A stretch of 64,000 nucleotides of DNA from a virus (Duplodnaviria > Heunggongvirae > Uroviricota > Caudoviricetes), in IMG/VR virus record IMGVR_UViG_3300031576_000029, positions 1-64,000 of that record; one strand, given 5' to 3'. The translations under genes and the position numbers were made by a program. How positions within the stretch are numbered: position 1 is the stretch's first letter; every line of letters starts with the position of its first letter. A model generated the notes under the pieces. That model saw only the letters and a list, made by a program, of their open reading frames with translations. It did no database searches and was not told the origin of the DNA. Shown here one piece after another: positions 1 to 62,235 of the stretch.

Positions 1-403
1 AAGTATGGAATCAAGTAATGAATCAAGTATGGAATCAAGTAAGGGATCAAGTATGGAATCAAGTAAGGGATCAAGTAGGGAATCAAGTAGGGGATCAAGT
101 AGGGAATCAAATAGTGGATCAAGTAAGGCATCAAGTAGTGTATCAAGTAGGGGATCAAGTAGGGGATCAAGTAGGGGATCAAGTAGGGGATCAAGTAGGG
201 GATCAAGTAGGGGATCAAGTAGGGAATCAAGTATGGGATCAAGTATGGGATCAAGTATGGGATCAAATAGGGGATCAAGTATGGGATCAAGTAGGGAATC
301 AAGTATGGGATCAAGTATGGGATCAAGTATGGGATCAAATAGGGGATCAAGTATGGGATCAAGTAAGGAATCAAGTATGGGATCAAGTAGTGGAGAATAT
401 TAA
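1..403. repeat. Tandem array of about 33 copies of a 12-bp unit, consensus aagtaNNgNatc; truncated by the window start
   Basis: Head-to-tail 12-mers can be read directly. Only three positions in the unit vary. Every frame stays open across the array. Confidence 0.95.
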
Positions 404-446
404 TAGGGAGTCAAATGTCAAAAAGAAAAATAAATGCAAGTCCTAA
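3..446 (+). CDS. Tetrapeptide-repeat protein with (D/N)QV(W/R/G) repeats; C-terminal part, N-terminus lies upstream of the window
   Basis: The open frame runs from the window edge (18..446 in the ORF track). It uses the same repeat register as the complete paralogue at 791..1207. A 12-bp period equals four codons. The alternative frame 5..403, with SS(K/M/R)G repeats, cannot be excluded. Confidence 0.3.
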   Translation, partial: VWNQVMNQVWNQVRDQVWNQVRDQVGNQVGDQVGNQIVDQVRHQVVYQVGDQVGDQVGDQVGDQVGDQVGDQVGNQVWDQVWDQVWDQIGDQVWDQVGNQVWDQVWDQVWDQIGDQVWDQVRNQVWDQVVENINRESNVKKKNKCKS

Positions 447-621
447 AATAGTTAAACCTTGGAAACATAATATTATGAAAATACGAAGAGAAGAAGCAGA
501 AAAACGTAATTCTGCTTATAACAAATTAACTATTCAACAGAAACTCGCTAAACTGGATATGAATGGGTATGCGGCAACTAAACAAAGATTTAAACTAAAT
601 AGTCAAATAAAAAAACCTTAA
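415..621 (+). CDS. Small basic hypothetical protein
   Basis: 68-aa ORF with a GGGAG ribosome-binding site 6 nt upstream. It starts right after the array ends. Confidence 0.5.
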   Translation: MSKRKINASPKIVKPWKHNIMKIRREEAEKRNSAYNKLTIQQKLAKLDMNGYAATKQRFKLNSQIKKP

Positions 622-790
622 GACGGAGAATATATGAATCATGAAGAAATTAGAAAAGAATGAAGACAAACTCTATATCAAATTCTAGGAATGCTAGGAT
701 ATTTAACACATGAAGATCCTTCTTATGATGAATTATTTAGACATTTAAATACAGAACTTGACTCTTTAGAAGATATAATGCTTAATAAAG

Positions 791-1207
791 ATGAAATATC
801 TTATGAATAAAAAAATCAAGATTCTCAAACCAGAATTATCAATAGAGGATCAGGATCAAGTAAGGTATCAAGTATGGAATCAAGTAAGGGATCAAGTAAG
901 TGATAAAGTAAATGATCAAGTAGGGAATCAAGTAAGGAATCAAGTGTGGAATCAAGTAAGGAATCAAGTAGGGAATCAAGTAAGGAATCAAGTGTGGAAT
1001 CAAGTAGAGGATCAAATATGGAATCAAGTAGGGAATCAAGTAAGGAATCAAGTGTGGAATCAAGTAAGTGATCAAGTAGGGAATCAAGTAAGGAATCAAG
1101 TAGGGAATCAAGTAGAGGATCAAGTAGGGGATCAAGTAAGGAATCAAATAGTGGATCAAATATGGAATCAAGTGAGGGATCAAGTAAAACAACAATTAGG
1201 AGAATAA
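791..1207 (+). CDS. Tetrapeptide-repeat protein: non-repeat N-terminal leader followed by about 28 xQVx repeats
   Basis: The ORF has a 25-aa unique leader. It ends one nt before the AGGAG ribosome-binding site and start of the next gene. The repeat period is 4 codons. Confidence 0.35.
   Translation: MKYLMNKKIKILKPELSIEDQDQVRYQVWNQVRDQVSDKVNDQVGNQVRNQVWNQVRNQVGNQVRNQVWNQVEDQIWNQVGNQVRNQVWNQVSDQVGNQVRNQVGNQVEDQVGDQVRNQIVDQIWNQVRDQVKQQLGE
846..1190. repeat. Second tandem array of about 29 copies of the same 12-bp unit
   Basis: Direct reading shows the same consensus as array 1. Confidence 0.95.
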
Positions 1208-1208
1208 A

Positions 1209-1457
1209 ATGAAAAAAACAGAGAATGGAACAATAGTAGTAACTGAAAAAGTAAATGCTACTCTTACAGTTGATAGCGAACATAAATTGTATAGTATTTA
1301 TGATGTAAAATTAAGTGATTTGGAAGAACTATTAAAACAAGCTAAAAAAATGAAAAAATATTGGACTAGTGAAAATCGTACGGTGCCTAAAAAAATTAAA
1401 GCTTCTTTTGTTCATTTAAATCCTAGATTAACATTTTATGTGCATTTTGATGGGTAA
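1209..1457 (+). CDS. Hypothetical protein
   Basis: 82-aa ORF with an AGGAG ribosome-binding site. Confidence 0.5.
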   Translation: MKKTENGTIVVTEKVNATLTVDSEHKLYSIYDVKLSDLEELLKQAKKMKKYWTSENRTVPKKIKASFVHLNPRLTFYVHFDG

Positions 1458-1557
1458 AATATGATTAAAAAAATTATAACAGATGAAACACATAAGCCTA
1501 TTAAAATTTGGACAGATGATGTAGAAGTTGAAGTAGAATATTTAGAACTTATTAAAG

Positions 1558-2307
1558 ATGAATATGCTGACAAATAAACAATATTATATATTACTAGCAT
1601 TCTTAATTATAATGTATCTACTTTGTATATCAGTAAATATTGCTATCAGCGAAGAAAGAAATATAGCATTAGTAGAAAATAGAATACAGATTGCTCTTTT
1701 AGATACAGGAATATCAATACAAGATTATAAAATAAAACCATTCCTTTGCAATAAGGTTTATGATATGACAAATTCTTCAGTAGAAGATTGGCATGGTCAT
1801 GGAACACATCTTGCTCACATTTTAGCTTCTTTTATTGATTCGAAAAAACACTGTATTTTGATTATAAAAGTATTTAACAGACGTCATGAATACGGAGTTG
1901 GTGGAGTTGACAGTATTCTTAAAGGGATTAGAAACTCTATTGACAATCATGTTAGATATATTAATTTAAGTTTTGGAGGAACTGAGAAATCTATAGATGA
2001 AGAAAAATTAATAAGGGAAGCATTGGATAAAAATATTAGGGTAAGTGTAGCAGCGGGAAATGAAGGACGAGATTTTAATAAGCTTTCATGTAATTATTAT
2101 CCAGCTTGTTATAATATTAAATCTAATAATTTTTATGTAGTTGGTTCCATAGATTCAAATGGAAAAGTTACATCGTTTTCTAATTATCATGGTCCTATCG
2201 ATGCGTATGAAAAAGGAGAGATCGAAATTGATGGTATATCTGGAAGAGGAACAAGTATATCTACAATTATTTGGACTGGTAAATTACTACGAAAGGAAAA
2301 TCCTTAA
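1558..2307 (+). CDS. Subtilisin-like (S8) serine protease with N-terminal signal/membrane anchor
   Basis: Catalytic-triad motifs appear in the canonical order: LLDTGIS (Asp), HGHGTHLAHI (His) and GTSISTI (Ser). The N-terminus is hydrophobic. Confidence 0.6.
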   Translation: MNMLTNKQYYILLAFLIIMYLLCISVNIAISEERNIALVENRIQIALLDTGISIQDYKIKPFLCNKVYDMTNSSVEDWHGHGTHLAHILASFIDSKKHCILIIKVFNRRHEYGVGGVDSILKGIRNSIDNHVRYINLSFGGTEKSIDEEKLIREALDKNIRVSVAAGNEGRDFNKLSCNYYPACYNIKSNNFYVVGSIDSNGKVTSFSNYHGPIDAYEKGEIEIDGISGRGTSISTIIWTGKLLRKENP

Positions 2308-2308
2308 A

Positions 2309-2599
2309 ATGAAAATTAAATCTTTAACATTTGGATTTAGTAATCATATAACCAAAGAAGAATTAGAAAAAGCATATTCTGAAGGTATGATTAAAAAGTC
2401 TAATTTAGTTAACGAAGCACACTATTTAGGTACTTGTAGAAATTCTTATGTAGCTAAATGGATCAGCAAAGATAATTGTTTCTACTATATGAGAACTAAA
2501 TTTGGAGATACTTTTATAGAATCAATAAAACATCCAGAGGATGATGATAGATTTGATTTTTTTATTCCTATGGAAAAGATTGAAGATATATATGAATAG
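2309..2599 (+). CDS. Hypothetical protein; start trimmed from ORF 2159..2599
   Basis: The ATG at 2309 directly follows the stop codon of the previous gene. Confidence 0.4.
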   Translation: MKIKSLTFGFSNHITKEELEKAYSEGMIKKSNLVNEAHYLGTCRNSYVAKWISKDNCFYYMRTKFGDTFIESIKHPEDDDRFDFFIPMEKIEDIYE

Positions 2600-2725
2600 A
2601 TATAATATAATGGGAACTTACGATGGTTAAAAAAAGTATGAAAAGACTAAAAAGATTTAAACAATATGAATATGCTGTAGTTATTTTTACTATTGCTCTC
2701 ATATTACTTGTAATGAAAGTCGTAG

Positions 2726-2995
2726 ATGTTTTCAGAAGCGGAAATTAAAGAAGCTGTGATGTGGTATGTGATTCATAATCAACATCATTTAAAAGAAGAA
2801 TTAAAAGATTTAATACAACAGAGAAATGATCTTATTAAAAAAGAAGATGAAGTATTTCATGATGATATTACAACTCAATTCGAGAAAATGGCAAAAAGTA
2901 TTATTTGTGAAAAAATAGGAAAAGACTTGGCTTTATCTCCCGAATCTGTTATTATAATTTTAGATGATTTAAACATGGACGAACTTATTGCTTGA
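2726..2995 (+). CDS. Hypothetical protein
   Basis: 89-aa ORF. Confidence 0.4.
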   Translation: MFSEAEIKEAVMWYVIHNQHHLKEELKDLIQQRNDLIKKEDEVFHDDITTQFEKMAKSIICEKIGKDLALSPESVIIILDDLNMDELIA

Positions 2996-3020
2996 CAAAG
3001 GATTTGGAATTTGATAAACT
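2992..3020 (+). promoter_or_regulatory. Sigma70-like promoter for the Ro60 gene: TTGACA, 17-nt spacer, TGnTAAACT
   Basis: Consensus -35 box, an extended TG, and a 4/6 match at -10, about 125 nt upstream of the Ro60 ATG. Confidence 0.45.
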
Positions 3021-3078
3021 AAGAGTAGTACAATAGCCGAATGGCTGTACTCTTTCATTGTAACACTGAGGGTCGAAG

Positions 3079-3110
3079 ATAATCGATTATTGGATTATAT
3101 CATCGATTAT
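3079..3110 (+). promoter_or_regulatory. Pair of ATCGAT-centred palindromes (ATAATCGATTAT, ATCATCGATTAT) in the Ro60 5' leader; candidate operator
   Basis: One perfect 12-bp palindrome and a near-copy 20 bp downstream. Confidence 0.35.
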
Positions 3111-3146
3111 CAATTCCTTATCCTCCTTCTTTCTTAGGAGAACAGT

Positions 3147-4736
3147 ATGAATTATTCAAATTTCTTATCCAAGAAGACAACTCCTCAAACACAACCTATT
3201 TTTGGTCGCAATGATCAAAAACTTAATAATGCCGGAGGATATGTATTTGATGTTCCAGATCAAGCATTACTCGAAAGATTTCTTACGATTGGTACAGAAA
3301 ATGGTACTTATTATGTAAGTGAACAAAAGCTCACTGTTGATAATGCTAAACGCATGATTGAGATTATTAAAAAAGATGGAAAGAATGTTGTTCAAACTCT
3401 CCTTAATTTTACAGAAAACAACAGAGCACTTAAACAAGATCCATCTATTTTTGTGTTAGCTTTAGCTTGCACTTATGGAGATGCCGATACAAAGAAATTT
3501 GCTTATAATGCCATTCATAAAGTATGTAGAACATCTACTCATTTATTTACTTTCTGTCAAAATGTTCAAGATTTAAGAGGATGGAGTAGAGGATTAAGAA
3601 CCGGAGTATCTCAGTTTTATTTATCTAAAAGTCCAAAAGATGTTGCTTATCAACTTGTTAAATATCGTCAACGAAATGGATGGACACATAGAGATGTTCT
3701 AAGACTAGCTCATACTAATCCTAGACTATCTACTGGATATTTGTATTTATTTCACTATGCAGTAAATGGTTCTTTAAAAATGAGCATGGATGTTCCTGAT
3801 ATTATTCATGCATTTGAAAATGCTCAAGATACCGATGATGTTAAAGAATTGGTAGATTTAATTAAAAGATACAATTTAACTTGGGAAATGGTTCCAACAG
3901 AAAAATTAAATAATAAAGAAGTTTTAGCTGCTCTTCTTGAAAATATGCCTATGACAGCTCTACTCAGAAATTTAAACAGATTTGCTATTTCAGGTCTGAC
4001 AAATGGACGTAGAGAATATCATACAAATTTTATTGTTGAAAGACTTAATGATTTGAATCTTCTTAAGAAATCTCATGTACATCCAATTACTCTTTTAAAT
4101 ACAATGAAAATCTATAATTCAGGTCATGGAATGAAGGGTAAACAAACTTGGACTCCCAATCAAGAAATTGTTGATGCTCTTAATAGTTCATTTGAACTAT
4201 CTTTTCAAGCTGTCGAACCTACAAATAAGTCTATTCTTATTGCGGCAGATGTCAGTGGTAGCATGTCTCATTCTAATGTTGGTGGAATGGCTTTAAGTCC
4301 TATCGAAATAGCAGCTGCTTTGCTTCTAACTACTTATAAAACTGAACCAAATGCAGAAGCTGTTTTGTTTGATACTGTTGTGTACCCAACAAAATTTGGC
4401 ACAAGAACAAGTTATGATGCAGTTCTCCAAACTGTTAAAAATATTTGTGGAGGAGGAACTGATTGTTCACTTCCATTCAAACATGCATTGAGCACTAGAA
4501 CTAAATATGATGCTATTATGACTTTAACAGATAGTGAAACATGGGCTGGAAGTCAACATCCTATTCAAGCATATGCAACGTACAAACAAACTGTTAATGT
4601 AAATACTAAAGGAATTGTTGTTGGAATGGTAGCTAATGAATGTACATTATTTCCTGCTGAAGATTTAGATGCTCTCAATATTGCTGGTATGGATAGTTCA
4701 ATACCCGAATTAATTCGTAATTTTATTAAGGATTGA
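3147..4736 (+). CDS. rsr: Ro60 (Rsr) orthologue: TROVE domain plus C-terminal vWA domain
   Basis: The N-terminal GGYVFDVPDQALLERFLTIGTENGTYYVSEQKL matches the TROVE signature. The C-terminal half has a vWA MIDAS motif, IAADVSGSMS. Length is 529 aa. Confidence 0.8.
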   Translation: MNYSNFLSKKTTPQTQPIFGRNDQKLNNAGGYVFDVPDQALLERFLTIGTENGTYYVSEQKLTVDNAKRMIEIIKKDGKNVVQTLLNFTENNRALKQDPSIFVLALACTYGDADTKKFAYNAIHKVCRTSTHLFTFCQNVQDLRGWSRGLRTGVSQFYLSKSPKDVAYQLVKYRQRNGWTHRDVLRLAHTNPRLSTGYLYLFHYAVNGSLKMSMDVPDIIHAFENAQDTDDVKELVDLIKRYNLTWEMVPTEKLNNKEVLAALLENMPMTALLRNLNRFAISGLTNGRREYHTNFIVERLNDLNLLKKSHVHPITLLNTMKIYNSGHGMKGKQTWTPNQEIVDALNSSFELSFQAVEPTNKSILIAADVSGSMSHSNVGGMALSPIEIAAALLLTTYKTEPNAEAVLFDTVVYPTKFGTRTSYDAVLQTVKNICGGGTDCSLPFKHALSTRTKYDAIMTLTDSETWAGSQHPIQAYATYKQTVNVNTKGIVVGMVANECTLFPAEDLDALNIAGMDSSIPELIRNFIKD

Positions 4737-4799
4737 ACGAGTCGAATGAGAATCGGTTATTTTCAAGCTATATCCGATTTTCGATAACTTATTCGTTCA
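4734..4799 (+). ncRNA. Candidate Y-RNA-like module 1, directly 3' of rsr
   Basis: Terminal 7-bp stem TGAACGA/TCGTTCA encloses an internal aatcgg/ccgatt hairpin. It shares a GAGTCGAATGA box with module 2. Confidence 0.3.
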
Positions 4800-4845
4800 T
4801 TAATTTGGAATGTAGTGAATCATAGATATTTTTATCAATTTATTT

Positions 4846-4937
4846 TTAGCGAGTCGAATGAATTGATTAGAGTTCGAATCTCATCTTGAAGCGATAGCTT
4901 CTTGTAGGAACCCGATTTCTAAATCTTCATTCGCTAA
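4846..4937 (+). ncRNA. Candidate Y-RNA-like module 2 with a tRNA-like T-arm mimic
   Basis: The terminal stem TTAGCGA..GAATGAA / TTCATTCGCTAA carries a 5-nt bulge. Inside it are GAG-TTCGAAT-CTC (a T-loop consensus) and the GAAGC-gata-GCTTC hairpin. A U-rich tract follows. Confidence 0.35.
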
Positions 4938-4976
4938 TAACAAATTTTATTTTCTATTTGCGAATAGGAGGATTTT

Positions 4977-6245
4977 GTGAAAGTTAAGAAGATAGATGCC
5001 AAAGGGAGAAAATACTATACTTTAGTATATAATCCTAAATCGAAGAAAACTATCTTTATTCAAGAATTTCCTCAAACTCTTCATATTAGAGAATCAAATA
5101 CCGATAACGGTAAACCTAGACATCAAACACGTTTTATTATTTCTTTTAAGAGAAATCAAGTTAATCTATATCAAAAAGGTACAGGTAATAGAATAGTAAA
5201 TGTTACTACTACTCCTGAAGCCTTTGATAAGTATATTAATAATAGTTTGGCTTTTGCAAAAACAGATAAAACTAATAAATTTTTCTTGTTAGGTAAAAGA
5301 TCGGCATTAAACAAATTAATCTTACAAAAAGCTAAACAATGTAAAATACGAACATTAATTAAATTAAATGCCACTAGATTTTATTCGGGAAGTTTAGTTT
5401 ATATTTTAGCCTTTCCTTTGACCTCTGAATTTATAATAAGTAGATTCCCTAAAGAAATAGTTCATTTGGCCGGATCTAGAAAAAATCCTATTTCAAGATT
5501 CTTAAGAAAATTTTCTATTAGAGAAGCAGTAGAAAGTGGATTAAAAACTAAATCAAAAAAGCTTATAAAATTAATAACTGAAAGTAATAATCTATACAGA
5601 ACATTTTTATTTGTCTATACCCTAAGAAAATTGATACCTTTAGATTACATATTTGAAATAATTCTTAATAATACTAGTCAAAGTTTAGGTTTCATCAATG
5701 AACAACAAGTTAGAATAACAAGAAAATTACTAAAAAATTATGGTAAAGAACGCATTAAGATTTTGATGTCTAAGACTTTTAATGATTTTGAATTAATAGA
5801 TTCAGCAAAACAATGGAATGATTTTAAAAATCAAATAACTTTACCAGATAAACCAGATTCTATTAAAACATTACATGATTATATTTCAAAAGAATATAGA
5901 AAAGTAAAAACCCAGAATCATAAATTAAATATGATTAAAACGTTTAAAATTTTAGATGGTTTTCAAATTAAAAATTATAGATTCCATTTACCAAAAAACA
6001 CACATGAGTTAATTGAATGGGGTCAAAAATTGAATAATTGTATAGCAAGCTATTCAGATAGCGCAATGAGACAAGATATTCAATTAGTTGGAGTATTAAA
6101 AGATGATCAACTTACTTATGCTTTAGAATTATCTAAACAGGGTAAGATAATCCAATTTAGAGGAAAAAATAATTCTTCACCTGATCTTTCGGATTATAAA
6201 TTAATTACACATACTATCACTAACTTATTGACCATTTATCCATAA
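4977..6245 (+). CDS. PcfJ-like domain protein
   Basis: The C-terminal block ELIEWGQKLNNCIASY...IIQFRGKNNSSP resembles the PcfJ-like signature. It has a GTG start with an AGGAGG ribosome-binding site. Confidence 0.45.
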   Translation: MKVKKIDAKGRKYYTLVYNPKSKKTIFIQEFPQTLHIRESNTDNGKPRHQTRFIISFKRNQVNLYQKGTGNRIVNVTTTPEAFDKYINNSLAFAKTDKTNKFFLLGKRSALNKLILQKAKQCKIRTLIKLNATRFYSGSLVYILAFPLTSEFIISRFPKEIVHLAGSRKNPISRFLRKFSIREAVESGLKTKSKKLIKLITESNNLYRTFLFVYTLRKLIPLDYIFEIILNNTSQSLGFINEQQVRITRKLLKNYGKERIKILMSKTFNDFELIDSAKQWNDFKNQITLPDKPDSIKTLHDYISKEYRKVKTQNHKLNMIKTFKILDGFQIKNYRFHLPKNTHELIEWGQKLNNCIASYSDSAMRQDIQLVGVLKDDQLTYALELSKQGKIIQFRGKNNSSPDLSDYKLITHTITNLLTIYP

Positions 6246-6262
6246 AAGGGTATAATATTTAC

Positions 6263-6607
6263 ATGACTATTCAAGAAGCAATCGAAACTACCAAACCTTT
6301 TAGACTTCCTAAATGGAGCAATAATTGGATAACTGTAGATTTAAACGCCAACTTATTTAAGTTATCTGGTCCTGATAGTCCTGATCTATGGAAATTATTT
6401 CCAAATGATTTTTTATCTCTTGATTGGGAAGTAAAATTGTGTAACACGCACAATACAATCGCTATTAATCAACTACATCTTCTCTGTGCAACTTGTCTAG
6501 GAGAAGCTGTAACAAACATAGTTCCGCCAGAAATAAAACTTGTTCCTAAATGTTCATGTGATTTAAGATTAATTCTTTCTAAAGGATGTCAATGTGGAGG
6601 AATATAA
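6263..6607 (+). CDS. Cysteine-rich hypothetical protein
   Basis: 114-aa ORF with C..C and CSC...CQC clusters. Confidence 0.4.
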   Translation: MTIQEAIETTKPFRLPKWSNNWITVDLNANLFKLSGPDSPDLWKLFPNDFLSLDWEVKLCNTHNTIAINQLHLLCATCLGEAVTNIVPPEIKLVPKCSCDLRLILSKGCQCGGI

Positions 6608-6790
6608 TAAAAGAATTCAGGAACCTGATGCATTGCTATGGTTTAAAGTAGGCTCACAAGGAGCTGATAGAGTAATTTATTATTCGTGCCTGATTTGCTG
6701 TCACCTGCATTGTGGTGAGATTGGCTAAGCAACTATTCCAGGGCCAGCATGCTGAGTGCCTAGAAAGCTGGTAAAATTTTGGAGTTGTTA
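6608..6790 (+). other. ORF-free, GC-enriched intergenic island; candidate small structured RNA
   Basis: No ORF on either strand. Local G+C is well above the flanks. Contains TCACC/GGTGA and CCAGC/GCTGG hairpins and an AGCATGCT palindrome. Confidence 0.2.
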
Positions 6791-7095
6791 TGAAAGCCAA
6801 GAATATAAGTAGACTTGATGAGCTTTGCAATGAAATGTTTCAGCTTTATCAAAAAGGCGGTGAAGAAGATTCATTGATTCAAGGCATTCATATTGCTCTG
6901 TCGATGGCTGAGATCGGATTGAAACTAGCTAAAAGTATTAAAATTCTCGAAAAAGCCCTATATAATATTATGTACAGTGCTTTATCACAAGGAATTGATG
7001 GAGATAAAAGTACAGTTGAAGATCATAAACAATATTCACTAGATCAAGCATCTGAAGCACTTCATGAAATGGAAAAAATATTAAATGAACCTTAA
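6790..7095 (+). CDS. Hypothetical protein
   Basis: 101-aa ORF. Confidence 0.4.
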   Translation: MKAKNISRLDELCNEMFQLYQKGGEEDSLIQGIHIALSMAEIGLKLAKSIKILEKALYNIMYSALSQGIDGDKSTVEDHKQYSLDQASEALHEMEKILNEP

Positions 7096-7300
7096 AAATA
7101 GAGCAATTAATATTCAAATAATTCGTACCAAAAAGGACCCCAAAATATATATGACATTAACTCATTTAATTAGTGGACTATCTGTTTCAAGTAAAGGCAT
7201 TTCTGAATCTAAATTAAGAAAAAAGTTATTAAAAGAATTACAACGAAAAATTATATCTTATGTTAAAGACTATATTGCTAATCATCCTATTAAAAAATGA
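7085..7300 (+). CDS. Hypothetical protein
   Basis: 71-aa ORF, translationally coupled to its neighbours. Confidence 0.35.
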   Translation: MNLKNRAINIQIIRTKKDPKIYMTLTHLISGLSVSSKGISESKLRKKLLKELQRKIISYVKDYIANHPIKK

Positions 7301-9153
7301 ATCCATCTAATAGACTTCTTAGTGAAATAGTGGCATTTCGTACATATGCTAAATATCTACCACATTTAGGTAGAAGAGAATCATTTGAGGAAACAATTAA
7401 TAGATGTCTCACTATGCATCTGGATAGATTTCCTAAACTATCCAGAGACATTATTAAAGCTTTTCAAAAAGTACATGAAAAAAAAGTAATGCCTTCGATG
7501 CGTTCTTTGCAATTTGCGGGTGAAGCTATATTAAAAAATAATATAAGACAATATAATTGTGGATTTGTGCATATAAATAATCCAAGAGCTTTTGGAGAAG
7601 CTTTATTCCTATTATTATCAGGAACAGGAGTAGGTTATTCAGTACAAAAAAGACATGTTAATGAATTACCAATTATTAAACTTCCTCGGGAAGAAGGCAT
7701 TTTTATTATTCATGATTCAATTCAAGGTTGGGCACAAAGTTTAGATATTTTACTAGAAGCCTATTTTTTTAATCGTATACGGCCTATATTTGATTTTTCT
7801 AAGATTAGACCTAAAGGATCATATTTAGTAACTAGCGGAGCTAAGGCACCAGGTCCAGAGCCTTTAAAATCAATGCTATTACAAGTAGAGAATAAACTTA
7901 AGCAAGCTATAGGAAGAACTTTAAAATCAATAGAAATACACGATATTATTTGTATTTCAGCAGATTGTGTATTGAGTGGTGGTATTAGAAGAGCAGCACT
8001 CATAAGTTTATTTGATAAAGACGACAATGAAATGCTCGAAGCCAAACATGGTAATTGGCAAGAAAAATATCCACATAGGGCTAGAGCAAATAATAGTGCA
8101 GTTCTTTTAAGAGATAAAAGTTCTAAAGAAGAATTTAATTATATATTTCAAAAGTGTATAGATTCTAATTGTGGTGAGCCTGGATTTGATTTTACTTCTG
8201 ATTTAGATTGGGGAGCGAATCCATGTCATGAAATATCTTTACATTCTAATCAATTATGTAATCTTACTACAATAAATCAAAGTGGTATTAAAGATAAAAA
8301 AGATTTTTTAAGCAGAGTTTATTCTGCAACATTGATTGGTACTTTACAAGCTTCTTATACTAATTTTCCATATATTAGACCAGCATGGCAATTAATAACG
8401 GAACAAGAAGCATTACTTGGAGTATCATTTACTGGAATAGCTGATAATGGTAATAAAATTCCTAAAGCTTGGTTAAAAGAAGCAGCAAGATTAGCTAAAA
8501 AAGTAAATGAACAATACTCTAAAATAATCGGAATCAATCTCTCTGCTAGAATTACAACCGTGAAACCGGAGGGTACATCTAGTTGTGTATTTAGTTCGAG
8601 TAGTGGAATACATGCCAGACATTCTGAGTATTATTTGCGTCGAATTAGAATGAACAAAAATGATGCTTTGGCGAATTATTTATCTAAAAACATTCCTGAA
8701 TTAATGGAAGATGATTTCTTTAGTCCTAATGGAGTTGTATTCACCATTCCTCAAGAATCTCCGAGTCATGCAATTTTACGTATAAATGAAAGTTCTCTTG
8801 ACTTATTTCAAAGGGCATTATATTATCATGACAACTGGATAAAGCCTGGCCATAGAATGGGCATAAACACACATAATGTTTCTTTAACTATTTCATATAA
8901 ATCGGAAGAAATAAACGAATTAAGAGAAGCAATGTGGAATAATAGAAATAAATATAATGCAATTTCATTGCTTCCATTTGATGGTGGAATATATCAACAA
9001 GCCCCATTTGAAACATGTAATAAAGAAACCTTTGATAAATATAATCAAATGATTAAAGAAATTGATTTGCGTAAAATTAAAGAAGAAGAAGATAATACTG
9101 AACGTATTAATATGCTTGCATGTATTGGCGGAGTATGTGAGTTAGAATTATGA
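7297..9153 (+). CDS. Ribonucleotide reductase catalytic subunit, probably class II (B12-dependent) type
   Basis: RNR motifs are present: NCGFV for the first active-site Cys, NPCHEISL for the Cys/Glu, and the TTVKPEGTSS loop. A C-terminal Cys pair CIGGVC is present. No R2 subunit gene is nearby. Confidence 0.6.
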   Translation: MNPSNRLLSEIVAFRTYAKYLPHLGRRESFEETINRCLTMHLDRFPKLSRDIIKAFQKVHEKKVMPSMRSLQFAGEAILKNNIRQYNCGFVHINNPRAFGEALFLLLSGTGVGYSVQKRHVNELPIIKLPREEGIFIIHDSIQGWAQSLDILLEAYFFNRIRPIFDFSKIRPKGSYLVTSGAKAPGPEPLKSMLLQVENKLKQAIGRTLKSIEIHDIICISADCVLSGGIRRAALISLFDKDDNEMLEAKHGNWQEKYPHRARANNSAVLLRDKSSKEEFNYIFQKCIDSNCGEPGFDFTSDLDWGANPCHEISLHSNQLCNLTTINQSGIKDKKDFLSRVYSATLIGTLQASYTNFPYIRPAWQLITEQEALLGVSFTGIADNGNKIPKAWLKEAARLAKKVNEQYSKIIGINLSARITTVKPEGTSSCVFSSSSGIHARHSEYYLRRIRMNKNDALANYLSKNIPELMEDDFFSPNGVVFTIPQESPSHAILRINESSLDLFQRALYYHDNWIKPGHRMGINTHNVSLTISYKSEEINELREAMWNNRNKYNAISLLPFDGGIYQQAPFETCNKETFDKYNQMIKEIDLRKIKEEEDNTERINMLACIGGVCELEL

Positions 9154-9401
9154 ATAAAGAAGATGCAAAAAAAGTTATTAAACTATTACTAACAGTAGAT
9201 GGCGGGTGTAAGTATTGCGTTAATGATGTTTTAAAAGAATTTCAAGATACATTTCCTGAAATAGATATATCTAAAATTATGAAAACTTCATTTAAAGAAT
9301 TTCAAAGCGAATGTGAACATGAATATATTAGCAAAGATAAAATATATAGATGTTCTTTATGTGGGTTTGAAGCATGCATTCTTTATAATGGTTTAAAATG
9401 A
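9150..9401 (+). CDS. Small Cys-rich (zinc-ribbon-like) protein
   Basis: CKYC...CSLCGFEAC. Confidence 0.35.
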   Translation: MNKEDAKKVIKLLLTVDGGCKYCVNDVLKEFQDTFPEIDISKIMKTSFKEFQSECEHEYISKDKIYRCSLCGFEACILYNGLK

Positions 9402-9432
9402 ATCAAATAAGGGATAAAGTAGAGAATCAAGT

Positions 9433-10530
9433 ATGGAATCAAATAGCAACATAAAAAATAAGCTTTCTCATAGTCAATGTAGTAAATATCAAGATTGTCC
9501 GCAAGCTTGGTATTATCATTACAAAGAAAAGTTACGTCATAAGTATCATTCGGCTGCATTGCTATTTGGTTCCGCTTTGGATCATGCTTTAACCTCTATA
9601 TTAAAAGATAAAGATAAGAATCCAAATGATATATTTGCTTTTTTTTGGAGATTTCAACAATTAAACGATCAAGATGTATATCTTACTAATTGTATAGATA
9701 TAGTCTATGCTAACTCGGATTTTGATTTTGAGTTGTTACAAGATGTAGATTTACAAAATATTAAAGAAAAATATAAAATAGAAGATATAGGAACAACAAT
9801 AAAACAACTTTATGAAGAAAAGGATCTTAAAGGATTTAATGGATTAAGTAAAGATAAAAAAGAGCTTTTAAATGTTTTTAATTGGTATAGTCTATATAGA
9901 AAAGGCTTACTAATGATTAAACAATTTCAGAAAGATATTCTTCCTAATATTGAGAAAGTTCTAGCAGTTCAAGTTTATGTTACACTAAAGAATGAAGATG
10001 ATGATGTAATTATAGGTTATGCAGATTTAGTATGTAAATATAAAAATCATGGAACTGTTATCTTAGATTTTAAAACCGCCAGTAAAGAATATGATGAAGA
10101 AAATAGTGTACTTACATCTCCACAGTTAACTCTTTATGTTCATTCTTTAGAAGAAGAATTTAAGACTAGAAAAGCTGGATATATAGTATTTAATAAACAT
10201 GTACGAAAAAATAAAACTAAGGCTTGTTCCCGTTGTAATAAAGACGGAACGGGACAAGGACATAGAACTTGTGATAATACCATTGAGGGAAAAAGATGTC
10301 ATGGTGCATGGATTGTAAAAATTAATCCTGAAGTAACAATTCAAACAATTATAAATGAAATACCTACTCAAACAGAAGATATTGTATTACAAAACTATGA
10401 TTATATTAATCAATCAATTAAGAATGGGATAGTTTATAGAAATTTTCAAAGTTGTATAAAGCCTTGGGGTCATTGTCCATTCTTTAAAAAATGTTATAAC
10501 AATTCAGATGAAGACTTAATAAAATGTTAA
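9433..10530 (+). CDS. PD-(D/E)XK nuclease, Cas4/RecB-like, with C-terminal Cys cluster
   Basis: N-terminal QCSKYQDCPQAWYYHY, core GYADLV...ILDFKT, and C-terminal CxxC...C...C. Confidence 0.55.
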   Translation: MESNSNIKNKLSHSQCSKYQDCPQAWYYHYKEKLRHKYHSAALLFGSALDHALTSILKDKDKNPNDIFAFFWRFQQLNDQDVYLTNCIDIVYANSDFDFELLQDVDLQNIKEKYKIEDIGTTIKQLYEEKDLKGFNGLSKDKKELLNVFNWYSLYRKGLLMIKQFQKDILPNIEKVLAVQVYVTLKNEDDDVIIGYADLVCKYKNHGTVILDFKTASKEYDEENSVLTSPQLTLYVHSLEEEFKTRKAGYIVFNKHVRKNKTKACSRCNKDGTGQGHRTCDNTIEGKRCHGAWIVKINPEVTIQTIINEIPTQTEDIVLQNYDYINQSIKNGIVYRNFQSCIKPWGHCPFFKKCYNNSDEDLIKC

Positions 10531-19456: not shown

Positions 19457-19813
19457 ATGAATAGAATTATACAATTAGCTAAAAAACTCAGTTATAAATC
19501 AGATCATAGAGCACACAAGCTTGGTTGTGTAATTGTTAACAAAAATAAAATTATATCATTGGGATGGAATAGAATTAAAACACATCCCAAATCTCCTCAT
19601 AAATTTAAATCAATTCATGCCGAATTTCATGCTATCTTAGGTGTAGATGAACGAGAATTAAATGGAGCGACTGTTTATATTTATAGAGAACAAAAGAATG
19701 GTAAACTAGGTAAAGCTCGTCCTTGTTCTAGTTGTTGGAAAATGTTAGAAAATGTAGGAATTTCTGAAATAATATATTCAGATTATGATGGAATGAAAAG
19801 AGAAAGGATATGA
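19457..19813 (+). CDS. dCMP deaminase, zinc-dependent
   Basis: HAEFHAI and PCSSCWKML zinc motifs. Start moved to the ATG at 19457, just after the stop of the previous gene. Confidence 0.8.
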   Translation: MNRIIQLAKKLSYKSDHRAHKLGCVIVNKNKIISLGWNRIKTHPKSPHKFKSIHAEFHAILGVDERELNGATVYIYREQKNGKLGKARPCSSCWKMLENVGISEIIYSDYDGMKRERI

Positions 19814-20595
19814 GCATTCCTAAAGATATTACTTCTAAACATTTAACAATTGATGCCTGGGCGATATTAAGTGGTTACAGAGGAAGTATAGCTCACGGAA
19901 TGTATGTTCCAAAAGATAATCCAAATAGTATTGATGATAAAGATGTTATGACAGTATTTCTAGCTCCATTTGATTATTATACTACATTAGAAACTCATGG
20001 GTTATCTCGCGGAACGAAAGAAATTTTGGAAGGTGAATGGGATGTTGTTTGTTACGAATTTAAAAAATTTATTAGTTTATTAATTAAAGGTAATCCAAAT
20101 GTTATTTCTTTATTATGGCTAGAACCTAATTATTATATTAAGGTAACTGATATAGGACAATCTTTATTGATTAATAGAGATGTATTTTCATCAAAGCAAA
20201 TTTATCATTCCTTTTCTGGATATGCTTATTCGCAATTAAAAAAAATGACAAGCTTTTCTTTTGAAGGATATATGGGAGAAAAACGAAAAAAATTAGTAGA
20301 AAAATTTGGATATGACTGTAAAAATGCAGCTCATTTAATTCGTCTTTTACGTATGGCTATAGAATTTTTGCATGAAGGGGTATTTTTTGTTCAAAGACCA
20401 GATGCTACTCAATTGCTAGATATTAAATTAGGAATGTGGTCACTAGATCAAGTTAAAAAAGAAGCTGAAAATTTATTTAAAAGGACAGAAGAAGCTTATG
20501 ATAAATCTAAGCTACCTAATCAAGTTGATTTGAAAAAAATAAATGAATTAATGGTTGATTGTTTTAAAGAACATTTTTATGGAGAATTCATATGA
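19810..20595 (+). CDS. Pol-beta-superfamily nucleotidyltransferase
   Basis: GS...(15 aa)...DDKDV pattern near the N-terminus, 261 aa. Immediately upstream of the RNA ligase. Confidence 0.45.
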   Translation: MSIPKDITSKHLTIDAWAILSGYRGSIAHGMYVPKDNPNSIDDKDVMTVFLAPFDYYTTLETHGLSRGTKEILEGEWDVVCYEFKKFISLLIKGNPNVISLLWLEPNYYIKVTDIGQSLLINRDVFSSKQIYHSFSGYAYSQLKKMTSFSFEGYMGEKRKKLVEKFGYDCKNAAHLIRLLRMAIEFLHEGVFFVQRPDATQLLDIKLGMWSLDQVKKEAENLFKRTEEAYDKSKLPNQVDLKKINELMVDCFKEHFYGEFI

Positions 20596-21683
20596 GCGAC
20601 TTTCGGGTAGAAATTACTGATATCAAAGCAGTAAGACATCATCCCAATGCTGATAGATTAGATATTGTAAATATATTTGGTTGGGAAGTTGTAACATCTA
20701 AAGATACTTATAAAGTTGGTGATAAAGTATGTTATTTTCCTGTTGATTGTATTATAAGTGAAGATTTGGAAAAAATATTGTTTCCTCCTGATTCTAAAAT
20801 TAAATTAACTAATAGACGTATTAAAAGTATAAAATTGCGCGGACAAATAAGTCAAGGAATGATTGCTAATCCTAAACTTATAGGAGTGGATCATTTTAAT
20901 ATCGATAAAAATGTAGCTGAGTATTTAAAATGTATTAAATATGAACCACCAGAAATATCTAAACCAAGAGGAATGCAGGTTAGATCCAAAAAACAAGTCA
21001 ATCCTAATTTTCGTAAATATACTGATATTCAAAATTATAAATATTATAATGAAGTATTTCAACAAGGGGAACTTGTTGTTATTACTGAAAAATGTCACGG
21101 CACCTCGTGGCGTGGAGGTTGGGTGAAAAACGATGCTAATACTTTGTGGAAGAAAATAAGAAAATTATTTGGTCGGCTTCCTGAATGGGAATTTGTTTGG
21201 GGAAGTCATAATGTTCAAATTCAAAATAAATTATTTCATAAGGGCTTTTATGATGTAGATGTATATTCGAAAATGGTTAAACAATATGATTTAAAAAATC
21301 TTATTCCAAAAGGTTATGTTCTTTATGGAGAAATAGTTGGTTATAATATTCAAAAGAATTTCCATTATGATTGTGTTCCAGGGGAACATAAACTCTTTTT
21401 ATTTGATGTAAAATTTAATGACAAATGGTTAGATTATGAAGATTTTAAAATTACAGTAGATGCTTTAAAATTATCTAGAGTTCCTGAATTATTTACTGGT
21501 CCATATGATCCGGCTATTGTTGATAAACTTAGAAGCGGAACTAGTATATTAGATGAAAATACCATTAAAGAAGGTATTGTAATTAAAACAATTAAAGAAA
21601 CAGAATGTTCACTTGGAAGAAAAATATTAAAATTTATAAATGATGAATATTATTTATTAAAAGACGGAACGGATTATCATTAG
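20592..21683 (+). CDS. Rnl2-family RNA ligase fused to an N-terminal Myf/EMAP-type tRNA-binding domain
   Basis: N-terminal HPNADRLDIVNI matches the tRNA-binding-domain signature. Ligase motif I EKCHGTS (KxHG as in Rnl2), motif IV LFLFDV, motif V KEGIVIK. Confidence 0.6.
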   Translation: MSDFRVEITDIKAVRHHPNADRLDIVNIFGWEVVTSKDTYKVGDKVCYFPVDCIISEDLEKILFPPDSKIKLTNRRIKSIKLRGQISQGMIANPKLIGVDHFNIDKNVAEYLKCIKYEPPEISKPRGMQVRSKKQVNPNFRKYTDIQNYKYYNEVFQQGELVVITEKCHGTSWRGGWVKNDANTLWKKIRKLFGRLPEWEFVWGSHNVQIQNKLFHKGFYDVDVYSKMVKQYDLKNLIPKGYVLYGEIVGYNIQKNFHYDCVPGEHKLFLFDVKFNDKWLDYEDFKITVDALKLSRVPELFTGPYDPAIVDKLRSGTSILDENTIKEGIVIKTIKETECSLGRKILKFINDEYYLLKDGTDYH

Positions 21684-48085: not shown

Positions 48086-48550
48086 CTATATAAATAATTT
48101 CACCAATAAGCTAATAAGTAAAACGCTTTCACATAATACAGTTGTTATTAACCATGTGGAAATAGGATTGTAAATTCGATCTGTTCTTTCTATTGAAATA
48201 GGTAAATCTTTGTAAATGATTTTTTCTACTATTTTTTCTACTTCTTTTATTTCAATTTCTTTAATAATTTTAGGTACTTCTATAACTGTTATTTTTTCTT
48301 GTATAATTATGACAGGTTTTTCTATTTCTTTTATTTCTAACTCTTTAATAATAACGGATTTTTCTATTTCTTTGATTTCAACTTTAGGAAATAAATCAAA
48401 TAGATTAGGCTGTTTTTCTCCTACACTATTTAATAAAGAACTAGAATTATTGTTTACAATAACAACACGTTGTGCATCAACAGATTCATCAAATACACGT
48501 TTGTGGATTTGATCAGTATCTAATAATGTTAAGTGTTGATTTTTATTCAC
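48086..48550 (-). CDS. Membrane-anchored protein with KEIEIKE(V/I)EK repeats
   Basis: C-terminal TM. Direct KEIE repeats. GTG start. Confidence 0.35.
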
Positions 48551-62224: not shown

Positions 62225-62235
62225 ATAGTTGTTAA
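62225..62235 (-). promoter_or_regulatory. Late motif copy 6
   Basis: Lies between the intein-containing gene and 61703..62212. Extended match TTAACAACTATGTA. Confidence 0.35.

Follow-up and report, generated by a model that had tools for sequence, protein, structure and literature searches.

Two 12-bp tandem arrays of an AT-rich tailed phage are genes for x-Q-V-x tetrapeptide repeats shared with the DUF6745 family

Near the start of the window, the whole 64,000-nt stretch of tailed-phage DNA analysed here, a 12-nt unit, AAGTA[N]GG[R]ATC, is the building block of two head-to-tail arrays. Such a locus raises the question of whether the arrays are genes, and in which frame they are read, or whether they act as DNA. 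If they are genes, it must also be asked where their repeats come from and what the encoded proteins might do. The features on which the answer depends are as follows.

1-394, + strand: array 1 as delimited by TRF, 32.8 copies with 87% matches
1-396, + strand: array 1 in unit register, 33 units with the consensus GAT CAA GTA GGG (D-Q-V-G), truncated at the window start
1-446, + strand: array-1 gene, 3' part, read in the QV frame (codons begin at 3, 6, 9 and so on); listed as ORF 18-446
791-1207, + strand: array-2 gene, taken from the ORF list, the sole + frame without stops; its TAA stop lies 1 nt before the next ATG (1209)
855-1187, + strand: array 2 as delimited by TRF, 27.8 copies with 80% matches
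858-1193, + strand: array 2 in unit register, 28 units with the consensus AAT CAA GTA AGG (N-Q-V-R)
9399-9455, + strand: mini-array of 4 degenerate units in an 18-codon ORF, translated as MNQIRDKVENQVWNQIAT and then a stop, located by tblastn and pattern matches

Organisation of the arrays and their surroundings

TRF, the unit register and a shuffle test all bore out the original prediction of two arrays of head-to-tail 12-nt units. When up to 2 mismatches were allowed, ATCAAGTANGGNATC had 62 matches in the window, compared with a mean of 2.06 in dinucleotide shuffles, and none of the 100 shuffles reached 62. The predicted 33 units were found for array 1 within the window, while array 2 has about 28 rather than 29. 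Unit positions 6 and 9 carry most of the variation between units. Translated in a single register, the two arrays give (D/N)-Q-(V/I)-x, in line with the (D/N)-Q-V-x first proposed, with Q and V as the constant residues of each unit and with variation at position 1 (D/N) and position 4 (W/R/G, less often E/S/V). Blocks of G-R-W-R form a higher-order structure within array 2. As for a diversity-generating retroelement, the variable site of the unit accepts T, A and G, a pattern that is not adenine-specific, and the approximately 25 ORFs scanned included no reverse transcriptase. Direct repeats of at least 9 bp, which would be an insertion signature, do not flank either window array.

Neither the exact DNA, searched in viral_contigs, nor the exact array-2 protein gave a match. 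The missing part of array 1 was recovered from a near-identical contig, L070, which we reached through the ORF neighbouring the arrays and which shows 0 mismatches to the window over 461 + 9,476 nt outside the arrays. L070 carries 13 more units upstream of the window start, which confirms that array 1 is cut by the window edge, and the complete array has about 42 units. The start of the gene is also seen in L070, where a Shine-Dalgarno sequence (AAGGTGGAG), an ATG and the leader MVNIR are found, 126 nt before the window start. The complete array-1 protein thus consists of MVNIR, 42 units and an 18-aa non-repeat tail (VENINRESNVKKKNKCKS), 190 aa in all, and its counterpart in L070 was predicted at 30-602 (190 aa) by that source's gene caller. 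The TAA stop lies at 444-446, and the gene overlaps the downstream ORF (415-621) by 32 nt, so that array 1 does not end just before a ribosome-binding site in the manner supposed for array 2.

The array-2 protein has 138 aa if it starts at ATG 791, or 134 aa if it starts at ATG 803, a codon shared in part with the stop of the ORF upstream. The protein is composed of a leader, (MKYL)MNKKIKILKPELSIEDQ, about 28 xQ(V/I)x units and the tail KQQLGE; depending on the ATG, the leader measures 17-21 aa instead of the predicted 25. The L070 counterpart of this gene was called at 947-1315. The first description placed the stop 1 nt before the next ribosome-binding site; in fact it is the next ATG that follows the stop at 1207 after 1 nt, so the AGGAG of the next gene is inside the array-2 ORF.

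Every gene in positions 1-29,456 of the window is on the + strand, and the arrays belong to the early-gene arm of this AT-rich tailed-phage genome. The ATG of the mini-array overlaps the TGA stop of the gene upstream, and a PD-(D/E)XK nuclease gene (9433-10530; Pfam PDDEXK_1) starts inside the mini-array in another frame. This mini-array is probably the remnant or the seed of a third array. A megablast search of window positions 1-8000 against GenBank phages gave no match, no tRNA was found in the window, and the ORF at 1209-1457 had no relatives in viral_contigs. An in-frame TGA in the ORF at 634-810 raised the question of an alternative genetic code, which was rejected, as TGA is the terminator of 12 of the 62 long ORFs and reading with code 4 yields just short extensions.

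Coding frame and the possibility of a DNA-level role

Both arrays are protein-coding genes that are read on the + strand in the x-Q-V-x frame. Of the + frames, QV alone stays open through array 1 and array 2 alike; in array 2 no other frame of this strand is open, the other frame having 4 stops. The original prediction had all six frames open across the arrays; in fact, array 1 is open in four of the six and array 2 in three. Two further frames had to be taken seriously because of a 29:5 synonymous excess in one and a tidy stop at 403 in the other, namely the codon-aligned antisense frame, (P-Y-L-I)n, and, for array 1, the + frame reading S-S-(K/R/M)-(E/G). Within the window, synonymous and non-synonymous differences numbered 0 to 34 (array 1) and 4 to 36 (array 2) in the QV frame, versus 29 to 5 and 28 to 12 in the antisense frame. 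The synonymous appearance of the antisense frame comes from variation at the first codon positions of NGG and RAT codons. On the window alone, the P-Y-L-I frame resembles one under purifying selection, and only the comparison among lineages rejects it. The SS frame of array 1, for its part, stops just before a ribosome-binding site and 11 nt before the next ATG, and the nuclease gene at 9433 begins in the SS frame of the mini-array.

The comparison among lineages gave the following picture. First, in L064, whose subtilase is only 45% identical and whose synteny is the same as that of the window, an array lies at the same place with GTG for Val in nearly all units, where the window has GTA; its QV frame is open, whereas its SS frame contains 3 stops. 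Second, Q is encoded by CAA or CAG, V by GTA, GTC, GTT or GTG, and L by CTC or TTA, according to the GC content of the lineage, and hundreds of proteins have the repeat in one reading frame with an N-domain and a DUF6745 domain. Third, the antisense peptide differs between lineages, being PYLI in the window and PDLS in the locus L021, and the aligned antisense frame of another locus, L057, contains TAA stops. The antisense ORFs also have no credible start, one of them overlaps the start of the next gene, and they oppose the direction of all genes in the surrounding arm. The SD and ATG upstream of array 1 are in the QV frame, not in the SS frame, which is also interrupted in array 2. The cross-lineage evidence rules out both the antisense and the SS frames, to which we would assign next to no probability.

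Translation of the arrays as (D/N)-Q-V-x tetrapeptide-repeat proteins is thus supported, the frame being fixed by the start seen in L070 and by the comparison among lineages. Selection at the protein level on residues 1 and 4, which had been proposed from the pattern of variation, is likewise supported. Peptides such as DQVWDQVGNQVW and NQVEDQIWNQVGNQVR would report on translation of the arrays. Arrays of this kind mislead frame calling, because their antisense frame looks as if it were under purifying selection.

It might also be supposed that the arrays act as DNA, as an origin with iterons, a partition site, a Dam/SeqA GATC cluster or a packaging repeat, with the open frames being incidental or the DNA role being an additional one. 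Iterons and clusters of GATC sites occur at replication origins, where the latter are Dam-methylated and bound by SeqA, and the window arrays resemble them in being short, near-perfect direct DNA repeats whose 12-bp period approximates one turn of the helix. GATC had been predicted in most units, which held for array 1 (21 of 33 units) but not for array 2 (8 of 28), and it does not occur in units that have A, S or N as the first residue. Its frequency in array 1 follows from the junction of the Asp (GAT) and Gln (CAA) codons, and in the rest of the window GATC occurs at expectation (167 sites versus about 185 expected). Arrays at or near contig ends, as in the window, L064, L001, L005 and 15 of 52 DUF6745 loci, together with the start of L070 only 42 nt upstream of array 1, would fit a DNA function; however, short-read assemblers produce contig ends at repeats. 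In addition, the lineages share the peptide and no common DNA motif: in L064, the closest relative, the unit is changed to GATCAAGTG, and elsewhere the peptide is written with CAG/GTC or with still other codons. Unlike iteron and GATC clusters, the arrays are contained in ORFs that have starts of their own and share the strand of all neighbouring genes, and Rfam found no matches in the whole window. The predicted Dam/SeqA, origin or partition role was therefore not upheld, GATC being a by-product of Asp-Gln, and we consider a function of the arrays as DNA very improbable.

Relationship to the DUF6745 family and evolution of the arrays

The repeat of these short genes also forms the central part of the proteins of a very large uncharacterised phage and prophage family, in which an N-domain is followed by a tetrapeptide array and a DUF6745 domain. 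A phmmer search with the array-2 protein matched 1546 representative clusters at E <= 1e-3, 35 of them at E <= 1e-30, and most of the matched proteins have 350-600 aa; xQVx-type clusters, defined at 50% identity, number more than 1,500. The array-2 protein matched the arrays of the 350-600-aa family members with E values of 1.6e-64 to 1e-17, and three of the loci (L002, L007 and L008) match PF20530 with E values of 4e-47 to 1e-12. Among 52 viral loci that were retrieved by the DUF6745 domain alone, most have an in-frame tetrapeptide array upstream and some do not, and the array types found there were xQVx, xQLx, SSLx, ANLx, AATx, SATx, xAVx and NEVx. Bearers of DUF6745 arrays include gp38 of the M. 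abscessus prophage prophiGD102-1, a prophage protein of Chryseobacterium sp. HR92 and more than 1000 metagenomic proteins, and a related DUF6745 protein of Microcystis phage LMM01 was found in BFVD; all of these are annotated as hypothetical. Matches of the array proteins in BFVD were only to other DUF6745 or uncharacterised proteins. Literature searches on DUF6745, on the repeat peptide strings and on 12-bp phage repeats found nothing.

The DUF6745 (PF20530) proteins share with the window an x-Q-(V/L/I)-x repeat, often with identical codons, the W/R/G/E set at position 4, homogeneity within each array and a phage early-region context. They differ in possessing an N-domain of ~70 aa and a C-terminal DUF6745 domain of ~200 aa, whereas the window genes have neither. 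Pfam gave no PF20530 match in the window array proteins, and the leaders MVNIR and MNKKIKILKPELSIEDQ are dissimilar to the ~70-aa N-domain (KLT.EQ...R..W..IGL.T...SP...). Sequence searches of the array proteins against Pfam, PHROGs and the PDB returned only sub-threshold compositional matches (YpjP, DUF4816, an ARID protein and Pfs230). No DUF6745 gene was found in the window, where tblastn with four DUF6745 proteins matched only the arrays, and none was called in L070 up to position 72,361 of 78,706, 8 kb beyond the window. Stand-alone arrays were also found in L004, L005, L006 and L064, and in L074 and L076 they adjoin DUF6745 genes. One genetic architecture therefore spans many unrelated phages and prophages of about 28% to 68% GC: a 12-bp unit, homogenised synonymous sites and variation limited to 1-2 residues per unit, mostly within the uncharacterised DUF6745 family and sometimes as a stand-alone gene, as in the window.

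Recombination between units had been suggested as a source of length variation, with indels expected in multiples of 12. A 48-nt in-frame indel (4 units) in array 2 between the window, which is the longer, and the otherwise identical L070 assembly supports this suggestion, although the difference could be an artefact of short-read assembly. Array 1 shows one substitution between the two, at a variable site. Across 31 arrays, the differences from the unit consensus at codon positions 1:2:3 were 418:346:34; for array 1 they were 31:3:0 in the window and 41:3:0 over its full length. Each constant residue is encoded by one codon within an array. The evolution of the arrays is thus shown in part: they change mainly as entire units, or blocks of them, are gained and lost, probably via slippage or unequal recombination. 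Every synonymous site thereby stays identical within an array, and diversity is maintained at codon positions 1 and 2 of the variable residues alone.

Slippage could, on the other hand, have expanded sequences that have no function of their own, in which case the arrays, translated or not, would be what is left of a DUF6745-type gene's central array, as a minisatellite in decay or a selfish one. The window has two copies plus the 4-unit remnant at 9399-9455, its array proteins have no flanking domains, and no DUF6745 gene was found in it. In L076, moreover, a 21-bp direct repeat surrounds a stand-alone array that adjoins a DUF6745 gene without repeats, suggesting that arrays are movable or excisable. 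However, neither ORF is interrupted over its length of 190 or 134-138 codons, and each has a start codon. A Shine-Dalgarno sequence precedes the array-1 gene, and the array-2 gene has its start coupled to the stop codon of the ORF before it. The stand-alone form is found at the same place, with its frame maintained, in the diverged relative L064, the W/R/G set of position 4 is found again, in other codons, in independent lineages, and the indel observed is in frame. We consider a leftover origin without function improbable.

Predicted structure, proposed function and comparison with known systems

The AF2 model of the array-2 protein is a single helix over residues 14-131 with a pLDDT of 90.6, a high value that constitutes weak structural evidence when it is obtained on a single long helix of a perfect repeat. 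The window arrays are thus predicted to fold as a long alpha-helix. For a DUF6745 protein (P0139), the AF2 model has a pLDDT of 89.5 and a pTM of 0.80 and shows the repeat as a hairpin of helices 61-87 and 101-115; in proteins of this family, the repeat is predicted to be a helical hairpin that protrudes from a globule formed by both end domains. Very short periods with few constant positions are also found in pentapeptide-repeat (PF00805) and hexapeptide-repeat proteins, which form beta-helices, in contrast to the continuous alpha-helix predicted for the array-2 protein. Among the best 25 of 32 weak Pfam matches of the array-2 protein, none reaches its curated cut-off and none is to a pentapeptide or hexapeptide family.

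Taken as a whole, the explanation that we consider best, and quite probable, is that the arrays are xQVx-coding genes for helical repeats, which evolve by gain and loss of units and have, by analogy, a role in conflict. The window proteins may be rapidly tunable interaction surfaces or rods in conflict between phage and host or between phages, for example in counter-defence or host takeover; this putative conflict function is inferred from the likeness to studied phage proteins discussed below. Because the window proteins have no end domains, the helix itself would be the active part, or it would work together with another protein. If the analogy holds, the arrays point to a large class of rapidly evolving genes of phage-host conflict that is easy to recognise, and they offer a natural system for how length change by slippage and residue diversity tune a protein. 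They also break short-read assemblies, the 15 loci noted above ending inside one.

A broader reading, which we regard as possible but on balance unlikely, is that tetrapeptide arrays are a general, modular and hyper-evolvable helical rod or hairpin, and that gp54 of phage Tweety is one case of a widespread counter-defence principle. The xQVx clusters, together with the lineage-specific SSLx, AATx, ANLx, xAVx and NEVx types, would then share a design in which length is tuned by gain and loss of units and the surface by 1-2 variable residues per unit (W/Y, R, G/S/D/E). If this were true, the stand-alone window genes would make the repeat helix the active module and not a spacer between domains. 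Phage tetrapeptide-repeat proteins have so far been regarded as a curiosity of mycobacteriophages, represented by Tweety gp54 and its relatives in cluster F, and the one demonstrated role of Tweety-type proteins is a counter-defence that can be retuned by repeat number.

Repeat numbers also vary in other phage genes. Bordetella phage BMP-1 bbp36 variable region 2 (VR2) was called reminiscent of the mycobacteriophage repeats by Pham et al. 2007 (PMC2884959), and according to that description it is likewise an in-frame tandem repeat in a phage gene, with 9-20 copies depending on the isolate. Compared by description, it differs from the window arrays in having a 24-bp unit (a 19-bp repeat and a 5-bp spacer) instead of 12 bp and another pattern of variation. 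Closer to the window are Tweety gp54, Che8 gp57 and PMC gp51, the mycobacteriophage tetrapeptide-repeat proteins of the same study, which have an in-frame 12-bp minimal unit in tens of copies (48, 26 and 15, respectively).

Tweety gp54 is the closest studied analogue of the window genes. Hatfull 2022 (PMC9262239), summarising Dedrick et al. 2017, presents gp54 as a counter-defence that mutations can tune and that is directed at the (p)ppGpp-synthetase system of Phrann gp29/gp30, and genetics in M. smegmatis are cited there for changes in repeat number that let Tweety escape this prophage defence. Some features set it apart from the window genes. Its unit is A-A-(G/W/Q)-(S/Y) rather than x-Q-V-x; it has an N-domain of ~135 aa and a C-region of ~40 aa, compared with leaders of 5-21 aa and tails of 6-18 aa in the window; and its proposed mechanism needs juxtaposition of N- and C-domains, which the window proteins do not possess. 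No sequence relationship between gp54 and the window proteins was detected. The flanks of gp54 are not homologous to the DUF6745 family either (hhalign probability 0.1), and gp54 has no Pfam match. The architecture of the repeat is nevertheless alike. Each unit combines two constant and two variable residues with invariant third codon positions, and the variation falls at codon positions 1 and 2, a pattern described by Pham et al. 2007 (PMC2884959), with differences of 10:5:0 in gp54 compared with the 31:3:0 of window array 1. In both cases the gene lies among small early genes of no assigned function, and close relatives differ by whole repeat units, by 4 units between the window and L070 unless the assembly is at fault.

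The arrays, their reading frame and other features of the window

The window, part of the AT-rich (about 30% GC) genome of a tailed phage, carries genes for ThyX, a family-B DNA polymerase, a ribonucleotide reductase and a DnaB-type helicase, and for tail proteins and a major head protein. Every gene between 1 and about 29.4 kb lies on the plus strand, and the standard genetic code is used, with TGA as the stop of 12 of the 62 long ORFs. The two period-12 tandem arrays described in the original prediction are real: both were recovered by Tandem Repeats Finder, and the degenerate unit pattern gave 62 matches in the window vs 2.06 expected from shuffles.

Tandem arrays near the start of the window (Tandem Repeats Finder)
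1-394: array 1, period 12, 32.8 copies, 87% matches
855-1187: array 2, period 12, 27.8 copies, 80% matches

In register, the unit AAGTA[N]GG[R]ATC occurs 33 times in array 1 and 28 times in array 2, and it varies mostly at positions 6 (T/A/G) and 9 (A/G). Some details of the prediction had to be revised. Open frames number four of six in array 1 and three of six in array 2, not six; the array-1 ORF read as (D/N)-Q-V-x (the QV frame) does not stop just before a ribosome-binding site but extends to 446, overlapping the next ORF by 32 nt; and the leader of array 2 has 17-21 aa rather than 25.

On the plus strand, the QV frame alone is open in both arrays; the SS frame, S-S-(K/R/M)-(E/G), is open across array 1 and has four stops in array 2. 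Differences from the unit consensus in the QV frame were 0 synonymous and 34 non-synonymous in array 1 (4 and 36 in array 2), and in the codon-aligned antisense frame, P-Y-L-I, 29 and 5 (28 and 12 in array 2). A naive selection test within the window thus points to the antisense frame in preference to the QV frame. This synonymous excess arises because the bases that vary open NGG and RAT codons, and these first positions become wobble positions when the opposite strand is read. As the frame is not decidable from the window alone, outside evidence was brought in.

A metagenome contig from ENA (L070; ERZ27247320 k141_1618901), 78,706 bp long, matches the window without a single difference over the 461-nt stretch that separates the arrays and over 9,476 nt past array 2, and it reaches 156 nt farther upstream. 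There, a Shine-Dalgarno sequence, AAGGTGGAG, and an ATG lie immediately 5' of array 1 in the QV frame, and the full array-1 protein has 190 aa: MVNIR, then 42 units, then a tail of 18 aa. The source's gene caller predicts this gene as well. An 80-kb IMG/VR contig (L064), whose subtilase is 45% identical to that of the window, has an array at the equivalent place, upstream of protease genes. In this array the Val codon is GTG in nearly all units, vs GTA in the window; the QV frame is open and ends in a short tail, and the SS frame contains three stops. The antisense peptide differs by lineage and has stops within it in another viral locus (L057). Because the repeat peptide, as judged from these contigs and from the homologues described below, is conserved across lineages while the DNA is not, we take the QV frame to be the translated one, as predicted, and consider it very probable that the arrays code in it. 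That the translated frame is a different one, such as the antisense frame favoured by the naive test, is extremely improbable.

The original prediction had also considered a Dam/SeqA, origin or partition role on the grounds that most units contain GATC. This holds for array 1 (21 of 33 units) and fails for array 2 (8 of 28). The GATC sites are a by-product of Asp-Gln codons, there is no conserved DNA motif, and both arrays lie inside ORFs, all of which makes a DNA-level element very unlikely.

Other features of the window
634-810: small ORF with a strong GGAG ribosome-binding site and an in-frame TGA at codon 10
3147-4736, 19810-20595 and 20592-21683: RNA-repair-type set (Ro60/TROVE + vWA protein, RlaP-family nucleotidyltransferase, RNA ligase)
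43361-43700: tandem repeats, period 60 (and 99) nt, in large minus-strand ORFs of the structural-gene arm
48233-48383: tandem repeat, period 42 nt, in large minus-strand ORFs of the structural-gene arm
62232-63953, minus strand: part of a 1042-aa intein-bearing gene (Hint + LAGLIDADG homing endonuclease) that continues past the window end

The independent contig L070 has the same sequence for the ORF at 634-810, so a one-off sequencing error is excluded as the source of its TGA, a codon that the genome otherwise uses as a stop. The ORF could be a pseudogene, be expressed by read-through or truly start at ATG 691. The window gave no match to any Rfam family, Y-RNA-like or other. The PHROG 'terminase' matches of the gene at 62232-63953 are probably due to its intein, because in another contig (L071) the protein that hosts the intein faintly matches a portal, and a Terminase_6N gene of its own lies alongside. 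The repeats at 43361-43700 and 48233-48383 are probably repeated protein modules of tail or fibre proteins.

The repeat in the DUF6745 family

A pattern scan and protein searches revealed many phage contigs and proteins that carry the repeat. In three contigs (L002, L007 and L008), it forms the central part of 409-512-aa proteins, preceded by a roughly 70-aa N-domain and followed at the C-terminus by DUF6745 (PF20530, E 4e-47 to 1e-12). We then collected 52 viral loci by the DUF6745 domain alone, which avoids ascertainment via the DNA pattern. Most have an in-frame tetrapeptide array just upstream of the domain, a few have none, and the repeat types are lineage-specific (xQVx, xQLx, SSLx, ANLx, AATx/DATx, SATx, xAVx and NEVx/DKVx). 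By genome GC (28-68%), the codons of xQ(V/L)x arrays are CAA or CAG for Gln, GTA, GTC, GTT or GTG for Val, and CTC or TTA for Leu. Searched exhaustively with phmmer, the array-2 protein matched 1546 representative clusters (E <= 1e-3); the top matches are proteins of 350-600 aa with the N-domain/array/DUF6745 architecture, plus a few giant proteins. Cultured hosts provide examples, all annotated as hypothetical, among them gp38 of the M. abscessus prophage prophiGD102-1 (about 50 xQLx units) and a protein of a Chryseobacterium sp. HR92 prophage (about 47 NQVx units). Searches for literature on DUF6745 or on the peptide strings found none.

In several unrelated phages, the DUF6745 repeat gene is adjoined by a small conserved protein with the motifs GDLL...GE.TGH.H.

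Copies of the small GDLL...GE.TGH.H protein
L002, 3575-3868
L007, 4469-4783
L008, 2314-2565
L005 (a contig with a stand-alone array), 925-1305

The two of these four copies scanned against PHROGs both match phrog_27831, of unknown function, and in one DUF6745 locus (L010) the protein is apparently fused upstream of the repeat gene. It may be a functional partner of the repeat protein; no copy was noticed in the window.

AlphaFold2 predicted the array-2 protein (64-sequence alignment) as a single continuous alpha-helix over residues 14-131, with a mean pLDDT of 90.6. For P0139, a complete family member of 328 aa, the model (93 sequences; pLDDT 89.5, pTM 0.80) folds the repeat into two antiparallel helices, H61-87 and H101-115, which form a hairpin whose tip is modelled with low confidence; from the single high pTM, the N-domain and DUF6745 would make up the globular part. 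A BFVD search matched solely DUF6745 or uncharacterised proteins, one of them from Microcystis phage LMM01.

Array evolution and stand-alone arrays

Inside any single array, each constant residue is encoded by one codon. Between-unit differences at codon positions 1, 2 and 3 numbered 418, 346 and 34 in 31 DUF6745-linked arrays, 31:3:0 in array 1 of the window and 41:3:0 in full array 1, a pattern opposite to that of ordinary purifying selection. From this we infer that units are continually homogenised through duplication, deletion and conversion, and that diversity at the variable residues is actively maintained. The position-4 residue set, W/R/G (sometimes with E) or Y/S/R/D, recurs across independent lineages with different codons.

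Between the window and L070, an in-frame 48-nt block, RNQVGNQVRNQVWNQV, differs in array 2, and a single substitution in array 1 falls at a variable site (M or V); this comparison, which the original prediction had asked for, comes out as coding predicts, and the 48-nt difference is possibly an assembly artefact, because both sequences are short-read assemblies. In 19 of the 52 loci the open frame upstream of DUF6745 continues to the end of the contig, and in 15 of these that end lies inside an array, so DUF6745 repeat genes are systematically truncated in short-read assemblies. Arrays likewise break assembly in L064 and two further contigs (L001 and L005). This breakage also accounts for the start of the window inside array 1.

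Neither an N-domain nor DUF6745 was found in the window array proteins, and gene calls over the 8 kb of the contig that follow the window include no DUF6745 gene. The arrays might then be functionless minisatellite remnants of a DUF6745 gene. We regard this as unlikely: the ORFs are intact and have start codons (preceded in the array-1 gene by a Shine-Dalgarno sequence), the indel is in frame, and the stand-alone form is conserved in a distant relative, L064 keeping it at the equivalent position. Stand-alone arrays also occur in L004, L005, L006 and several short database proteins on long contigs, and one contig (L074) has such an array at a distance of 3 kb from a DUF6745 gene.

Further small arrays
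L076 (JGI 3300075144 contig, 39.6 kb), 4086-4270: stand-alone xQVx array gene directly after a repeat-less DUF6745 gene
Window, 9399-9455: mini-array of four degenerate units, 18-codon ORF MNQIRDKVENQVWNQIAT with stop

On both sides of the L076 array lies a perfect 21-bp direct repeat, AATGCTGAAATCAGTTAGAAA, a hint that an array can insert, excise or move as one piece; no such flanking repeat was found around the window arrays. The ATG of the mini-array overlaps the TGA stop of the preceding gene, and a PD-(D/E)XK nuclease gene (9433-10530) begins within the mini-array, at an ATG of the other (M-E-S) frame.

Possible function and comparison with Tweety gp54

On the reading with most support, the array genes are translated into tetrapeptide-repeat proteins, predicted to be helical, that evolve through gain and loss of units while residue diversity is kept, and that would act in phage-host or phage-phage conflict. 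The precedent is gp54 of mycobacteriophage Tweety, in which unique N- and C-termini surround 48 A-A-x-x repeats with a minimal DNA unit of 12 bp, codon position 3 is invariant and positions 1 and 2 vary, 'consistent with selection for variation'; relatives have 26 copies in Che8 and 15 in PMC (Pham et al. 2007, PMC2884959). According to the summary of Dedrick et al. 2017 in Hatfull (2022, PMC9262239), Tweety escapers of the Phrann gp29/gp30 (p)ppGpp-synthetase defence had more or fewer gene 54 repeats, making gp54 a mutationally tunable counter-defence. A counter-defence-type role for the window proteins is conceivable but doubtful, since the argument is one of analogy and these proteins lack the flanking domains on which the Tweety model depends.

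The codon-position signature of Tweety gp54 is 10:5:0, the same pattern as in array 1 of the window. We found no Pfam domain in gp54, and hhalign detected no relationship between it and the DUF6745 family (probability 0.1). A very large phage family whose tetrapeptide arrays differ by lineage and share one inverted codon-position signature appears to be undescribed in the searchable literature, and this wider picture lifts the interest of the arrays beyond that of an ordinary hypothetical repeat protein. Tweety gp54 is the one studied example of this kind of tetrapeptide repeat, which is otherwise known from DUF6745, an unstudied Pfam family; the stand-alone xQVx genes add a new form of it.
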